DNA of 61,908 nt, counting the filler, from Deltaproteobacteria bacterium (GTDB lineage Bacteria > JAUYMQ01): the NCBI GenBank assembly GCA_030698575.1. It is 11 parts of 11 records of this genome, joined end to end, with 100 filler letters (N's around TTAATTAATTAA, not from the genome) between each part and the next. Parts side by side here need not be neighbours in the genome. Positions count along the whole stretch, not along the records: positions 12,481 to 16,240 come from JAUYMQ010000537.1; 10 more parts are not named here. The stretch is one strand, 5' to 3'. Every line of letters begins with the position of its first letter. Within the stretch, counting starts at the first letter, position 1. Shown piece by piece: positions 9,801 through 16,340 of the stretch. The notes under the pieces are model-generated. The model saw nothing but the letters and a program-made list of their open reading frames with translations, did no database searches and was not told where the DNA came from. The position numbers were made by a program, and so were the translations under genes.

Positions 9801-11366
9801 ATGGGCCTGAAGACAGGCGAGAGGCGGGAACCCGCCGCCCCCCGGGCAAGCACCGCGACCGACGGAGGAACCGGCGCTCTATCGCCCGCCGAGGGCGTCG
9901 GCCGGCGCGTCGTCGCCCAGAACGCCCTGTTTCTCGTTCTCTCGCAGATCGTCACGGCGATCCTCTCCTTCGCCGTGACGGCCCTTCTGGCGCGACATCT
10001 GGGAGCGCAGAATTACGGCGTCTTCTACGTCGCATTTTCTTTCGTCCAGTCCGTCTTCATTCTCGTGGAGCTCGGCCAGGATTTCTACGTCGTGCGCGCG
10101 GTCTCGCGCGACCGGGATCGTGCCGGAGAATATTTCGGTACGGGACTTGCCCTTCGCGCCGCGGCCACCGCAGCTGTCTACATTCCCGTGATGGGCGCCG
10201 CCCATGTTCTCGGCTATGAGGAGGCGACGCGATCGGCAATCGCCTTGATGGTCCTCTTTCATTTCACCAGCTCTCTCGGGAATGGCTTCAGCGTCATCTA
10301 CCGGGGCGCGGAGCGAATGGAGTTCGAGGCGGTTTCCCGCGTCGCTTTCCGGACCGTCGTGGCGGCGGCAACCGTTATTGCCATTCTCCTGGACGGCGGC
10401 ATCCTGACGGTGATCGAGGCGCAAGTTCTCGGCGCCGCGGCGGCCCTCCCCCTTCTGGCGCTCATTCTCCGGCGCCTGGGTGTTCCGCGCCCCACCGTTA
10501 ATCTGCGAACCGCCCGCGAAATCCTGCGCGGGGGCGTTCCCTTTCTCTTTTACGGAATCGTGACGACGGCCCACGCAGCAATCGACGCAATCATGCTGTC
10601 AAAGCTTGCGCCCGCGGAAGTCGTGGGCTGGTACGGTGCGGCGATCCGGTTCGTCGGCATTCTTATCTTTCCAGCGACCATACTCGCGGCTGCGCTCTTC
10701 CCGACCCTCTCGCGGCTCTTCATCAGCCGTCCGGAAGGGTACCGTCTCATGACTGCCACGGGCCTGAGAGCCATGCTGCTGCTCGGAATGCCCATCGCGG
10801 CAGGGACCTGGTTATTCGCGGAGCAGGCCGTGTCCCTGGCGTACGGACTCGAGGATTTTTCGAACGCCGTGACCATCCTGAAGGTCCTGAGCCCCTACTT
10901 CATCCTCGTATTCATCAACATCATCCTCGGAACGGCCATCATGGCGGCGAACCGCCAGTCCGCCTGGGCTTCCTCGAAGGGGCTCTGTGTCCTTCTGGTC
11001 ATCGGTCTGAACGCTGCATTGATCCCCCTCTGCCAGACACGTTTCGGAAACGGCGGGATCGGAAGCGCGTCGGCGATGCTCTTCACGGAAGTTGTCATGC
11101 TGGTGGCGGCTTTCCTGCTCATTCCCCGGGCAACTCTCGTGCCGGCGCTCTGGCGAGACCTGGGGCGTATCCTGGCCGCGGTGGCGGGGATGATTGGCGT
11201 GGCCTGGTTGCTTCGGGGTGTCTCGTCCGCGATCACCATTCCGGCGTCGGGTGCGGCCTACGTCGCCCTCATCTTCTTGCTGGGAGGGATCGACAGGGAA
11301 GATGTGGCTCTTCTGCGCGATGTGGCGCGTATCGGCTCGCGCGGCGCAATTGCGGGGGGGCGGTGA
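9801..11366 (+). CDS. Polysaccharide flippase (Wzx-like, MOP superfamily)
   Basis: Highly hydrophobic; LARHLGAQNYG, IDAIMLSKL...VGWYGAA. Confidence 0.9.
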   Translation: MGLKTGERREPAAPRASTATDGGTGALSPAEGVGRRVVAQNALFLVLSQIVTAILSFAVTALLARHLGAQNYGVFYVAFSFVQSVFILVELGQDFYVVRAVSRDRDRAGEYFGTGLALRAAATAAVYIPVMGAAHVLGYEEATRSAIALMVLFHFTSSLGNGFSVIYRGAERMEFEAVSRVAFRTVVAAATVIAILLDGGILTVIEAQVLGAAAALPLLALILRRLGVPRPTVNLRTAREILRGGVPFLFYGIVTTAHAAIDAIMLSKLAPAEVVGWYGAAIRFVGILIFPATILAAALFPTLSRLFISRPEGYRLMTATGLRAMLLLGMPIAAGTWLFAEQAVSLAYGLEDFSNAVTILKVLSPYFILVFINIILGTAIMAANRQSAWASSKGLCVLLVIGLNAALIPLCQTRFGNGGIGSASAMLFTEVVMLVAAFLLIPRATLVPALWRDLGRILAAVAGMIGVAWLLRGVSSAITIPASGAAYVALIFLLGGIDREDVALLRDVARIGSRGAIAGGR

Positions 11367-12380
11367 TGAATCCTGGAAAGGCAGGCCAGCGGATGACCCG
11401 CTCGCTGAGCTTCGCCTACACTTTCCCTTTTCCGGCGCACGGCGGCTACGATCTGCGGGTGGTAAACCTGGCCCGGCACATGGTCGGAAAGATCGATCAG
11501 CGGCTGCTCTGCCGGACACTGTCACCGACGAGCCCTGACGCGATCGAGGCTTCCCGCAAGGTCTTCACGGAGATCCACGCGCTTCCCTTGCCCCGCCCGA
11601 ACCTGCTCCGGAAGTTCGGGAAAGGGATTGCCTTCCTTCCCGGGCCCTATCCCCTGGCGGCGGCTGGCTTCTACTTCCGCCCCGTGGCTCGGCGGCTCGA
11701 AGAACTTCTTTCCGGCGGAAGTCTCGACCTTGTAATTATGGAGGGGAGCTGGCTGTGCGCGTACTGGCCGCTCATAGCCCGGTGCGGCGCGCGCAAGGTG
11801 CTCGATCTGCACAACCTCGAGAGCGAGACGGCCGCCCGGCAGGTGAGGGCTCCGGAATCCATGCTCGAGGGGCTGGTGCGGCGGCTCGATACGGGAAGAA
11901 TGGCCCGCGCCGAGCGCCGTATGATCCGGGAGGCCGATCTGGTACTGGTTCCATCAGAGCGAGAACGGCGCGCGCTGAAGGATGATGACGCGCAGTTGAA
12001 CGTCGTGGTGGTCCCGAACGGCGTCGACTGCCGCGCTCTTCGCCCACTCCCCCCCACGAATGGCCGGGAGATCCTGTTTGTGGGCGCCTTCACCTATTCC
12101 CCGAACGTCGATGCGGTCATCCACTTTGTCGACAACGTCTTCCCCTTGCTTCGCCGGCAGCTTCCCGACGTGACCTTTCGGCTGGTTGGCAGGTCTCCGG
12201 ATCCCGACGTGGCGCGACTCGGCGAGCGAGATGGAGTCGAAGTTACCGGAGAAGTGGAGGACGTCGAGCCCTTCTACCGGCGGTCGGCCATCTGCGTCGC
12301 ACCGCTCCGGGCGGGTGGCGGGACGCGGCTCAAAATTCTCGAAGCGATGGCCTTCGGCCGGCCGGTCGTATCCACGCAGC
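11363..12380 (+). CDS. Glycosyltransferase family 4 (3'-truncated)
   Basis: VVPNGVD, FVGAFTYSPNVDA, GGGTRLKILEAMAFGRPVVST. Confidence 0.9.
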
Positions 12381-12480
12381 NNNNNNNNNNNNNNNNNNNN
12401 NNNNNNNNNNNNNNNNNNNNNNNNTTAATTAATTAANNNNNNNNNNNNNNNNNNNNNNNNNNNNNNNNNNNNNNNNNNNN

Positions 12481-13262
12481 GTCGTGCCGTTGGAAACATT
12501 CATGGCGCCGCCGGCGGTAATGGCGCCACCGGAAATACTGAAACTCGAATTGTCAGAATTCCGCTGGCCGACGATGATCTGGTTGCTGATCGTGGCGGTG
12601 CCGTTCGTCTGATTATAGGCCGCCTTGGCCCCATAGTTGCCGATGATAAGATGTGCTTGGTTAACCGATAGTTCCGAGGTGGCGCCATCCATATTGACGT
12701 AGCCTTGAACCCCGTTACTGCTCCCGGTCCGCTCGGCAAGTGTGAGATTGCCGTCTAGAAGGATTAATTTGCCGCCATTGGTGATATTGACCGTGCCGGT
12801 TCGATTGACGTTGTTTCCATAGCCGACCACCACGAGCCGGTTCGCTGTGACCGTCGCATTGTCGATGTTGAGCGTGCCGTTTGGCGCGGTGCCGTTGGCG
12901 GCGCCGACCCACATCGCCGCGTTCCCGACGCCGGACGCCCCGGCGGTAAGCGTGAGTTGGGCGCCGTTGTTGATCGTGACCGTACCCGTTCCATTCAGTG
13001 TCGACAGCGTCGCCTGGTTGTGACCAACACGGAGCTTTCCGAAGTCGGCGGTCCCGTCAAACGTTGCCGTCCCGCCGGCGCCAAAATTAATGACGTCGCC
13101 GGGCAGCGGAGACGAGAGCGCAGCCGTGCCGTCCGTGTTGGTGTAGTTGGCGTCGGTCAGGATGCGCGTTCCGCCCTGCCAGAAAAGGTCTGCCGCCTGA
13201 AGCTGAGAGGTGGCCGACAACACTAGAGCCGCGGCCCAAAGCAATGATGTACGTCGATTCAT
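12481..13262 (-). CDS. Secreted Gly/Asn/Thr-rich beta-repeat surface protein (3'-truncated)
   Basis: Signal peptide MNRRTSLLWAAALVLSATSQLQA; repeated GTVTI/GTLNI/GTVNI strands. Confidence 0.75.
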
Positions 13263-13453
13263 ATCTCTTTACTCCCGTTTACAAACAATGGTGATTCTTC
13301 AACCCGCTTTGCGTTTCGACAGCCAACACGGCTTATAATCGCGATTACAACCAGTAGTTCCACGAGCGTAAAACCGTGTAGGGGCCTGGAGAAGTTGGTA
13401 CGCTTCTCCGTAGTTGTTTTTACCTTTTGGCCCCGTACACGGAGAGTTTTTCC

Positions 13454-14539
13454 ATGTCGAGCGCGTTTCAATCGTTTGTGGGAGTTGACTTGCACAAGTG
13501 CACCGTGACGCTGACCGCCGTCGATGCGGCGGGAGAGATCACCCGGCTTAAGATCAGCACGAAGAGCACGGGCAAGATCGAGGCTTGGCTGCAGGCGCTT
13601 CCTGGCCCGGTGCACTTGGCCGTGGAAGCCTGCCCGTTCGTGGAATGGTTCATCGATCGTTTTCGCGACTGCGTCGCGCGGATCGACATCGCCGACGCCA
13701 CGGAACTGGCAAGCCGTCGCGGTAAGCGGCGCAAGACCGACTGGAACGATTCGCTGGACATCGCCGCGCGACTGGCGCGCGGCGAGTGCCCGCTGGGATT
13801 CATCGCCGACGAGGAGCTGATGCAGCTCCGTAAGCGGGGCCGGCACTGGCGTCACTTGAGTCGATTGTTGTCCCGCAGCAAGCATGCCATGAAGAGCATG
13901 CTCAACGCGGCCAACATTCGCGGCCCCAAGTTCGACGGCGCCGCGGCCCAGCGCTGGCTGCTCGCGAACCGGGACCTCTTGAAGCCGGTCCAGCAACAGG
14001 CCTTCGCCGACTTCATCGACGTCGTCATGCTCACCGAGCGTCATCGAGAGCGGCTGCGGCGCGAGATCAACTTCGCCACGCGGAGCGAGCGGTTCACGCC
14101 GATCATCTCGCTGCTGGTGAGCGTGCCCGGCATTGGAGAGATCTGGGCGGCGATCATCGCCGCCGAGATCGGACCCTTCGATCGCTTTCCCAACGCCGAC
14201 ACCCTCGAGTTCTGGGCGGGCCTTACCGCCGACATGAAGGAGTCGGCCGGACGCACTCAAAGCGGCAACATCACCAAGGCCGGTTCGGTCACGTTGCGGT
14301 GGGCCTTGTGCCAGGCGGCCGTCACGCTCTGCCAGTGCGATGCCCGACAGGAAGCGATTCGCCAGCGACTGGTAAAGAGGCTTGGTAAACCCAAGGCCAA
14401 CGTCGCCATGGGCCGCCGGCTGCTGCGCGTGTTGTACGCCATGATGCGAGACGGAAAAACCTTCGAGCGAGGACCGGCCAGAGACCGGACCGCGGCCGCT
14501 AACCGGGTACGCCTCGGAAGAAAGAAGCAAGTGGCTTAA
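13454..14539 (+). CDS. IS110 family transposase/recombinase
   Basis: FVGVDLHK, AVEAC, KTDWNDS (DEDD domain); SVPGIG...AEIG..RF...WAGL..ESAG...ITKAGSVTLRWAL (Tnp_20 domain); GGAGAG RBS. Confidence 0.96.
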   Translation: MSSAFQSFVGVDLHKCTVTLTAVDAAGEITRLKISTKSTGKIEAWLQALPGPVHLAVEACPFVEWFIDRFRDCVARIDIADATELASRRGKRRKTDWNDSLDIAARLARGECPLGFIADEELMQLRKRGRHWRHLSRLLSRSKHAMKSMLNAANIRGPKFDGAAAQRWLLANRDLLKPVQQQAFADFIDVVMLTERHRERLRREINFATRSERFTPIISLLVSVPGIGEIWAAIIAAEIGPFDRFPNADTLEFWAGLTADMKESAGRTQSGNITKAGSVTLRWALCQAAVTLCQCDARQEAIRQRLVKRLGKPKANVAMGRRLLRVLYAMMRDGKTFERGPARDRTAAANRVRLGRKKQVA

Positions 14540-14599
14540 CCCCGGAGACAAAGAATCATTGACGCAGTGCGGAATCTTTGTGGCGTCTCGCTGCGGCGA

Positions 14600-14830
14600 C
14601 GGCGCCCCAGCGGATTGGTGACCGCGACCGGCCTTCATTCGGCCCAAGCGGCTCTCGTTCTCTCCCAGAGAAAAGAGCATCCCTTGGTGACCGCGACAGC
14701 GTGAATTCGGCCCGACCGCTGCGAACATGGTTTTATTCAGCCCGGTGAACACGTGTCGGCATGATGACCGCCACGTCCGGTGACTGCGTAGAGATGAATT
14801 CAACCGCCGCGCCGCTTCGCCCAAGCGACG
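14600..14830 (+). ncRNA. Putative bridge/seek-type guide RNA of the IS (boundaries approximate)
   Basis: Repeated scaffold TTGGTGACCGCGAC...TTCGGCCC frames target-matching segments; two further segments match the donor junction. Confidence 0.75.
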
Positions 14831-15249
14831 CAGGACGGACAACGCGATTCCGCCAACACAACTCAGGGCAACCGTCATCCTGCGGAGAGACCACAATGCC
14901 GGAACCATGAGGGAAAGAAAATTGTTCAGCAGCCGTTGACCTACGGCCCCTACAGAGATGAACCCGCCCTGCGAGCGACTACGAAAAGAGGCGAACATTT
15001 TCACGAACCTCCGCCTGGCTCTACCGCTGGCTTTTTAGCTGTTAAAGCACTTGAACAGATACTAGCTGAATTTGTCAGTTAATGCCAGTGGGGAGCCGGA
15101 AAAACGCGGCAAGGCACGACACATGCCAATTATAAGGCGCCGCGTAAAAAACAGGCAAACACCTGTTGGCCCATCAGGCCAATGTCATTCTGAGCAAAAC
15201 GACGAATCCGGCTTGCCCCAGTATAGATCCTTCGGTCGCTTAGGCTGCT

Positions 15250-16240: not shown

Positions 16241-16340
16241 NNNNNNNNNNNNNNNNNNNNNNNNNNNNNNNNNNNNNNNNNNNNTTAATTAATTAANNNN
16301 NNNNNNNNNNNNNNNNNNNNNNNNNNNNNNNNNNNNNNNN

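Follow-up and report, generated by a model that had tools for sequence, protein, structure and literature searches.

A putative RNA-guided IS1111-type element in prepilin genes of Planctomycetota whose antisense strand appears to be kept open in the host reading frame

Introduction

The closest described relatives of the element considered here are IS1111 insertion sequences that use a seekRNA, such as ISEc11, ISPa11 and ISKpn4/ISPst6. As set out in the accessible part of Siddiquee et al. 2024 (PMC11187229), members of this group carry subterminal repeats and a long non-coding region downstream of the transposase gene, encode a DEDD transposase with a PF02371 C-terminal domain, use short RNA segments that match both target strands, do not duplicate the target and insert into a target that is repeated many times per genome. 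Here we describe an insertion at positions 13370-14959 of a 61,908-nt stretch made of 11 records, joined end to end, of a genome assembly labelled Deltaproteobacteria bacterium (GCA_030698575.1). We refer to this whole stretch as the window. The insertion shares all of the features listed above, a likeness that is known from sequence alone. Its transposase has 361 aa, as against 330-350 aa given for the IS1111 family in the same portion of that source (PMC11187229). The target is also of a different kind. Described IS1111 targets are non-coding repeats, for example repetitive extragenic palindromic (REP) sequences, integron attC sites and the inverted repeats of transposons, whereas the target here is a conserved protein-coding motif.

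A second point of comparison is the bridge RNA of IS621 and the IS110 family. To the extent that the available accounts of that system describe it, two internal loops hold two guides each, one loop for the target and the other for the joined ends of the element, and the recombinase is homologous to the one encoded here. The same layout is predicted for the present element. Unlike the bridge RNA, its RNA lies 3' and not 5' of the transposase gene, its donor and target cores share a T only, and no Rfam family matched in window positions 13200-15200.

A third concerns elements that live within open reading frames (ORFs). Rickettsia palindromic elements and inteins are selfish elements inside coding sequence that spare the reading frame and so lower the cost to the host. 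In-frame miniature inverted-repeat transposable elements (MITEs) of Coxiella are likewise tolerated inside genes, according to the part of PMC5896051 that was available. The Rickettsia elements and Coxiella MITEs are short, non-autonomous and translated into the mature protein, and inteins are protein-splicing domains, whereas the present element is a full autonomous unit of 1.6-1.9 kb, read antisense, for which we propose removal, as part of a cleaved leader, by a signal-type peptidase of the host. In-frame repeats and inteins are thus analogues in effect, not in kind. Closer in design is IS900, an IS110-family element of Mycobacterium avium subsp. paratuberculosis, in which an ORF named hed spans the element on the opposite strand and lacks both a ribosome-binding site and a start codon of its own (accessible part of PMC8141618, citing Doran et al. 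1997). Our literature search, which did not extend to supplements that perhaps hold target logos, found no insertion sequence that targets prepilin or DUF1559 genes and none that is stop-free and in frame with its host gene; the latter property was not found in the available text of Siddiquee et al. 2024 (PMC11187229).

Results

The insertion and its target

The features needed to follow the insertion are these:

13370..14959, plus strand: IS1111-type insertion sequence of 1590 bp, delimited by its ends and by alignment of homologous copies
13377..13386, no strand assigned: left subterminal inverted repeat TGTAGGGGCC, 7 nt inside the end, kept in related copies
14945..14954, no strand assigned: right subterminal inverted repeat GGCCCCTACA, 5 nt inside the end, kept in related copies
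13454..14539, plus strand: transposase gene, 361 aa, IS110 family RNA-guided (ORF and profile matches), without TTA, CTA or TCA codons
14960..15004, minus strand: 5' part of the host gene (ORF), with start GTG 15004 or ATG 14998, a basic leader and G-G-F
13259..13369, minus strand: 3' part of the host gene (translation), truncated, with 12 recognisable prepilin-helix residues

The left junction reads CCACGAGCG, T (13369), AAAACCG (13370-76) and TGTAGGGGCC (13377-86), position 13369 being the last base of the left flank (..CCACGAGCGT) and AAAACCG-TGTAGGGGCC the opening of the element. The right junction reads GGCCCCTACA (14945-54), GAGA, T (14959) and GAACCCGCC. Because T13369 and T14959 are common to both ends, the boundaries can be moved by 1 nt and 13369-14958 is equally valid. 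There is no target-site duplication beyond this one shared T and there are no terminal inverted repeats at the extreme ends. The 10-nt subterminal inverted repeat is perfect, and its only exact matches in the 61.9-kb window are the two element ends. Excision of 13370-14959 restores, on the minus strand, GGC GGG TTC^ACG CTC GTG GAA CTA CTG, or G-G-F^T-L-V-E-L-L (^ marks the junction here and below), so that both the junctions and the excision product agree with the initial annotation, which had placed the element precisely in a prepilin motif.

Comparison with other copies gives the same limits. In nearly all loci, DNA similarity to the window ends about 35 nt past the left end and about 6 nt past the right end. 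Contigs from soil, permafrost and groundwater metagenomes span the element, with divergence setting in at 14959-14963 on one side and before 13338 on the other; among contigs from four sequencing runs, neither a joint nor an empty site was recovered.

The transposase scored 174 bits (cut-off 140) over residues 8-335 against NCBIfam NF033542, 'IS110 family RNA-guided transposase', 72 bits against Pfam Transposase_20 (PF02371) and 28.6 bits, slightly below the cut-off of 29, against Pfam DEDD_Tnp_IS110 (PF01548). The IS621 transposase structure 8wt6 matched it with an E value of 1.4e-14 over the C-terminal half. For the S/T-G motif of the C-terminal domain, the IS1111 logo shown in the accessible part of PMC11187229 is G L. 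P.... S G; the corresponding translation in the window (..AGLTADMKESAGRTQSGNITKAG..), read without a family alignment, contains the S-G, with a longer gap between G-L and S-G and with the P substituted. Non-coding DNA amounts to 420 nt downstream of the transposase gene and 84 nt upstream in the window, and to 369-678 nt downstream in relatives. The subterminal repeats, the downstream non-coding region, the lack of target duplication and the IS110-family RNA-guided transposase all bear out the earlier description of the element as IS1111-like, and they identify 13370-14959 as a predicted autonomous IS1111-type member of the IS110 family.

A search of public collections with the transposase returned 116 related loci, 36 from species genomes and 80 from metagenomes, the former nearly all in metagenome-assembled genomes (MAGs) of Planctomycetota. 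Host-sense T-L-V-E-L-L or T-L-I-E-L-L was present in 90 of 99 distinct left flanks. The nine exceptions comprise five tandem copies, one decayed motif, one retargeted element (locus L012) and two odd flanks (LGKSSNP and NQARWTV). Distinct right flanks (n=83) read G-F in 55 cases and A-F in 21 (76/83). The two odd left flanks, and odd right flanks reading HR and DG, are probably loose pattern matches and were scored as misses. All flanks with the motif lie antisense to the transposase, giving a single orientation, and the flanks are dissimilar farther out, which indicates independent insertions. The recurrence of these codons at one and the same junction rules out a chance placement. The coding motif and the fixed orientation opposite to the host gene had both been predicted from the window, and these flanks uphold them; homologues in unrelated targets with no enrichment for the motif, the finding that would have spoken against the idea, are not what these counts show.

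The motif is also abundant. Exact codon sites for F-T-L-[VI]-E-L-L numbered 36-59 per genome in five carrier genomes, as against 0 for a reversed control pattern, and the same genomes hold one to four full element copies each. Available portions of the literature give DUF1559 as the largest paralogue family of Planctopirus limnophila, with 68 genes, and report 74 DUF1559 genes in Rhodopirellula baltica. Planctomycetes offer dozens of motifs, chiefly in DUF1559 genes, which makes the target a multicopy one, as had been proposed for this expanded gene family. The interrupted genes encode N_methyl plus DUF1559 proteins and also, in a Phycisphaerales genome, a GspH-like pseudopilin and other prepilin-type proteins; by Pfam, the host at L008 is a DUF1559 gene and those at L018 and L017 are GspH-like and Laminin_G_3 genes. 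At an E value of 1e-60 or below, the transposase was found in 0 of 400 other genomes of a phylum-wide sample, and the distribution of the element family across the phylum is patchy.

Three loci deserve separate mention. L005 (a Gemmatimonadota MAG) and L015 (a Terriglobales MAG) are the only genome loci outside Planctomycetota; they are contigs of 1.4 and 1.7 kb that contain the element and little else, and may each represent a mis-binned repeat contig rather than a transfer. In the upstream flank of L017 (4597-4680), a leader reading M-R-K-R-A-R-D-F-T-L-V-E-P.. precedes the real ..S-A-F^T-L-V-E-L-L and constitutes a second, degenerate motif.

An antisense strand without stops in the host frame

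The insertion leaves one reading frame open from the host start codon to beyond the far junction:

13259..15004, minus strand: read-through frame of 581 codons, comprising the host start and leader, the stop-free element, H-G-F^T-L-V-E-L-L-V-V-I-A-I-I and 24 unrelated codons

We surveyed this property in 83 copies with both ends, representing 76 unique sequences. A length divisible by 3 combined with zero host-frame stops was found in 72 of these 76 (24/27 in the first set), and the 72 compliant copies fall into 31 different lengths between 657 and 1878 bp. Stops average 10.5 and 20.9 in the other two antisense frames, and each copy has at least two stops in each of them. Four copies depart from the rule: L003, L026 and L089 through frameshifts, and the retargeted L012, which has 21 host-frame stops, a length that leaves a remainder of 2 on division by 3 and two of the 'forbidden' codons in its transposase gene. 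L003 and L026 (from the same MAG) and L089 are thus the sole rule-breakers at prepilin sites, through indels of 1-2 nt; at L026 the transposase and the host gene are likewise frameshifted. These three could be decaying copies or assembly indel errors.

The rule holds separately for each part of the element. In full-length copies the 3' non-coding region has 0 host-frame stops, as against 3-9 and 1-6 in the other frames, and every one of its lengths is divisible by 3. The distance from the left end to the transposase start is 81, 84, 87 or 90 nt through separate indels, all multiples of 3, so that the frame is also preserved at the exit into the mature part of the host protein. Insertions of up to about 280 nt are tolerated when they preserve the frame. 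Since the transposase gene is codon-aligned with the host frame, antisense stops within it would correspond to sense TTA, CTA and TCA codons. In the pooled transposase genes, CTA accounts for 0 of 2163 CTN codons, TCA for 0 of 609 TCN codons and TTA for 0 of 483 TTR codons, and the three together for 0 observed as against about 189 expected from the usage of neighbouring host genes. Codons ending in A make up 8.1% of the other four-fold families, so there is no general avoidance of them in the transposase genes, and unrelated IS110-family genes of the same genomes contain one to six TTA, CTA or TCA codons. In the real genes of the window these codons occur at only about 2-7 per 1000, several long ORFs having none; the transposase part of any one copy is consequently weak evidence, and the case draws its strength from the non-coding parts, the lengths and the codon count over all copies.

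The encoded antisense residues show no constraint. Variable columns in the antisense frame of the non-coding region numbered 29/23/27, 47/43/45 and 67/73/82 at codon positions 1/2/3, without codon periodicity, and the ratio of synonymous to non-synonymous change in that region is near neutral. At four-fold sites of the transposase gene the mean difference is 0.46, and 98% of the changes alter the antisense residue. Pfam detected no domain in the antisense frame other than the host N_methyl motif. Taken together, the copies give a strong indication that translatability in the host frame is maintained, and the property under selection is, to judge from these comparisons, readability and not protein sequence. 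The stop-free, in-frame property, like the truncation of the host gene in the window described below, goes beyond what the initial annotation had noted.

Two structural variants obey the same rule. About one-third of copies (L006, L010, L011, L012 and the long forms among L083-L142, of 1791-1878 bp) carry an extra conserved module of about 230-280 nt, placed after the guide RNA and before the right end, running from ..GGATTTTCGGAGGCATGGC.. to ..CCGTTTCACCAGGCA.. (for example L010:4400-4700). It is likewise in frame and stop-free, and a search of L010's longer non-coding region against Rfam gave a chance-level match only (E 0.98). L036:2902-3558 is a 657-bp internal-deletion derivative that has lost most of the transposase gene and the first RNA domain; its length is divisible by 3, it has zero host-frame stops and it lies within an intact host frame of 344 aa.

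A candidate guide RNA that varies with its target

The best-conserved stretch of the non-coding region is 14609-14842, in which the following features were recognised:

14609..14842, plus strand: seekRNA or bridge-RNA-like non-coding RNA gene (covariation), with two internal-loop domains and a 3' hairpin
14628..14645, plus strand: guide m1 (..GCCTTCAT..; ..TTCAT), 5' side of the first loop, equal to the bottom strand of the right target half GGN-TTC^A
14695..14713, plus strand: guide m2 (..CAGCGT-GAATTC..), 3' side of the first loop, equal to the top strand of the left target half AG-N-GT^
14721..14743, plus strand: guide m3 (..ACATGGTTTTAT..), 5' side of the second loop, reverse complement of the right half of the circle junction, AT^AAAACC.TGT
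14786..14805, plus strand: guide m4 (..AGAGAT-GAATTC..), 3' side of the second loop, equal to the element right end CAGAGAT
14804..14838, plus strand: 3' hairpin (helix 6), 11 pairs, of which 5 have changed on both sides

RNAalifold applied to 50 sequences gave a structure of 52 pairs in which 97.1% of cells are paired and 24 pairs have changed on both sides. None of 500 shuffles scored as high, and controls slid along the alignment reached at most 0.063 as against 0.248. The first domain is closed by pairing of 14609-24 with 14708-20 and has a covarying inner stem; the second domain and the 3' hairpin follow. Four conserved single-stranded segments, m1 to m4, occupy the sides of the two internal loops. 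A further helix proposed by RNAalifold (helix 3), which would pair m3 with m4, showed no covariation and is not claimed.

The segments of the first loop correspond to the target and those of the second to the element ends, m3 (..ATGGTTTTAT) being the complement of the left end of the element with AT in front of it. At the core the target has GT and the donor AT, and the U of m1 faces that G; the single T that the two cores have in common is the shared 1-nt core, without target-site duplication, that had been read from the junctions. One indication that the first loop reads the target comes from L012, which lies in an unrelated site, CCGGTAT^AATAGAG. Its m2 is CGGTAT and its m1 CTATTAT, both matching that site, where other copies have AGNGT and TTCAT. 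Among copies at prepilin sites, the TTC or TTT in m1 tracks the Phe codon of the target, with 48+15 concordant and 5+2 discordant cases (Fisher 2.4e-9), and the variable base of m2 agrees with the target's Thr wobble base in 39 of 67 copies (24.6 expected). Wobble mismatches are thus tolerated, which would allow a single guide to serve a family of synonymous sites. Covariation of guide and target at L012, at the Phe wobble and at the Thr wobble supports RNA-guided targeting as the predicted mode of insertion, in line with the guidance that had been suggested for the element from its family.

Host genes and the rebuilt prepilin site

In the host sense, the left end AAAACC reads GGT TTT and the exit from the element therefore reads ..P-L-H-G-F^T-L-V-E-L-L, by which a prepilin peptidase site is rebuilt. 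The upstream junction reads leader-G-F^I-S-V-G-A... A rebuilt G-F^T site could be used again as a target, and tandem copies are then to be expected. Eight loci (L081, L091, L092, L094, L108, L124, L125 and L129) contain head-to-tail tandems with ends exactly abutted (..CAGAGAT^AAAACC..).

We examined the host frame in the 32 stop-free copies whose host flank is 700 nt or longer. It continues for at least 200 aa after the junction in 27 of the 32; two more are short pseudopilins of 142-144 aa, and in the remaining three (the window, L023 and L121) the host gene is truncated. Upstream of the junction, the interrupted genes have start codons and basic leaders. Among public gene calls, 8 of 25 matches to the antisense frame of the window are fusions of N_methyl and DUF1559, 422-961 aa in length (three of them confirmed), in which these domains stand at the C-terminal end; the fusion proteins P0003, P0004 and P0007 carry N_methyl and SBP_bac_10. 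Peptidase_A24 is encoded in all five carrier genomes tested.

In the window itself, the host gene has a leader of 13-15 aa plus G-F upstream and no more than 36 codons beyond the junction (TLVELLVVIAII, followed by unrelated codons up to a stop). Pfam N_methyl (PF07963) is detected at residues 543-558 of the read-through frame, and the DUF1559 (PF07596) body is missing, possibly lost via a deletion adjoining the element. The window is an illustration of the family, an intact copy with a remnant host, and not a working example of sparing.

Discussion

We consider it fairly probable that this is an RNA-guided element which inserts into the prepilin motif, is kept readable and spares its host through an oversized cleavable leader. 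The 3' non-coding region would produce a seekRNA or bridge-like RNA that loads the transposase. Two short guides in the first loop would read both strands of the target, 5'-AG-N-GT^GAA-N-CC-3' (host sense GGN TTY^ACN CTN), and two in the second loop the joined element ends ..CAGAGAT^AAAACC... The match of the second-loop guides to the joined ends, the exactly abutted tandem copies and the -35-like GTTGACC near the junction are indirect indications of a circular copy. The DEDD recombinase would place this copy at the boundary of the F and T codons, in antisense to the host gene and without duplicating the target. Ribosomes initiating at the host start codon would then read some 530-620 element codons of arbitrary sequence, this stretch would remain cytoplasmic as an oversized leader, and prepilin peptidase would cleave at the rebuilt G^F-T-L-V-E-L-L, so that mature host protein is still made and the insertion is cheap. 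A host-sparing design of this kind would fit the junction structure; its weakest steps are read-through translation and leader cleavage, both of which we infer. For the stronger proposal, that the element hides at the protein level, its entire antisense strand serving as stop-free filler in a leader that the host peptidase removes to leave a working gene, we would put the chances at about even.

Several observations weigh against this interpretation. The window sequence alone does not fold more stably than its shuffles (z = -0.14), so that the case for an RNA structure is carried by covariation. The retargeted control consists of one element (n = 1), and the L012-type element is single-copy in its genome. 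Among the sequencing runs, no RNA run contained the locus. Known prepilin leaders have some 5-30 residues, as against more than 500 aa here. Hydrophobic stretches are not depleted, as 35 of 72 copies have a 19-aa window with a Kyte-Doolittle value of at least 1.6, much like one other frame, and these could disturb a purely cytoplasmic leader. DUF1559 redundancy weakens selection on any one copy, and intact host frames could be explained by recent insertion alone. Finally, sparing is moot for the three copies, including that of the window, in which the host gene is truncated.

An alternative, which we regard as unlikely, is that translation is selected for the element's own sake or against polarity, the fusion protein being a by-product. 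Ribosomes trailing the polymerase would block premature Rho-type termination, and host-driven antisense transcription would then cross the whole element; the effect would be to damp expression of the transposase and the guide RNA, or to keep downstream host genes transcribed. This would account for the stop-free frame, for the multiples of 3 in the 3' non-coding region and for the absence of amino-acid constraint, and the location of the transposase start region within conserved secondary structure suggests that expression is tightly controlled. Protection from polarity has no need of the exit frame, yet every indel in the 81-90 nt leader is a multiple of 3, L036 stays in frame despite its deletion down to 657 bp, the left end rebuilds G-F ahead of T-L-V-E-L-L, and the downstream host frames are mostly intact (27/32).

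It is less probable still that the antisense frame encodes an element protein with a function of its own, of the type of IS900 hed, which would borrow the promoter, ribosome-binding site and start codon of the host and might be freed by prepilin peptidase or anchored by the prepilin helix. The likeness of the two frames is one of design: in the available part of PMC8141618, the complementary-strand ORF of IS900 spans the element and lacks start signals of its own, and in both cases a host start is needed and insertion is orientation-specific with respect to host signals. Going by the title of Doran et al., Hed was taken to be a gene belonging to the element, with no known function, whereas the frame here runs into the host protein at either side, restores a protease site and is free of amino-acid constraint, for which readability is a better description than protein. 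Beyond what the sense strand imposes there is no amino-acid conservation, the periodicity being absent and the substitution ratio near neutral. The four-fold sites are nearly saturated, with almost all changes altering the antisense residue, indels ranging from tens of codons to hundreds are tolerated, as the 31 lengths show, and Pfam finds the host N_methyl motif alone. Very improbable is an ordinary gene-disrupting insertion sequence whose open frame results from high G+C, codon bias and shared descent, since the rarity of TTA, CTA and TCA in window genes, a stop-poor sense-strand off-frame (4 stops in L008) and the long spurious ORFs common at 62-66% G+C would have to be set against a property that is confined to one frame and extends to the non-coding region, 31 distinct lengths all divisible by 3, an absence of codons that control IS110-family genes of the same genomes contain, the loss of the property in the retargeted L012 and a four-fold divergence of 0.46 that is too high for inheritance alone.

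If sparing by an oversized leader is correct, it would represent a new, near-harmless transposon strategy based on a removable leader that is neither an intron nor an intein, and it would suggest a design rule for placing large cargo in genes without a knockout. Hed of IS900, and similar antisense frames of other orientation-specific IS110-family elements, may then be the same readability device. The signature is simple enough to look for across all IS110-family elements: the length divides by 3, one of the antisense frames has no stops, and the transposase gene has been purged of TTA, CTA and TCA codons. It makes the question about hed testable. The element also provides a natural case in which a guide reads the conserved coding motif of a large gene family, at a time when IS110 and IS1111 recombinases are in development as programmable insertion tools.

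Additional features of the locus

Beyond the host remnant (window 13259-13335) lies a gene for a secreted-looking repeat protein of 277 aa (12429-13262, minus strand), which had no Pfam match. Runs of X in translations at about 12386-12436 and 16289-16340 of the window correspond to masked (N) stretches, the first of them at the end of an ORF at 11363-12436 and at the start of the 277-aa gene. Four further features flank the coding regions described above:

15129..15158, minus strand: promoter-like site TTGCCT-18-TATAAT upstream of the host start, with 10/12 matches (consensus match only)
13387..13420, plus strand: hairpin followed by a T-run in the 5' leader of the transposase gene, terminator-like (13387-13410 plus tail; alignment)
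13429..13444, plus strand: GGCCCCGTACACGGAG, the complement of the left subterminal repeat, overlapping a GGAG Shine-Dalgarno-like sequence; 13374-84 pairs with 13432-42, and the feature is conserved
14935..14941, plus strand: conserved GTTGACC, -35-like, 17 nt before T^AAAAC (alignment)

The stem at 13387-13420 is preserved through compensatory changes, and its loop lengths vary by steps of 3 nt. Pairing of GGCCCCGTACACGGAG with the left end possibly sequesters the ribosome-binding site of the transposase gene. Given the spacing of 17 nt between GTTGACC and T^AAAAC, a putative promoter would assemble solely on a circle or tandem junction. The abutted ends of the tandem copies also re-create this putative junction promoter.

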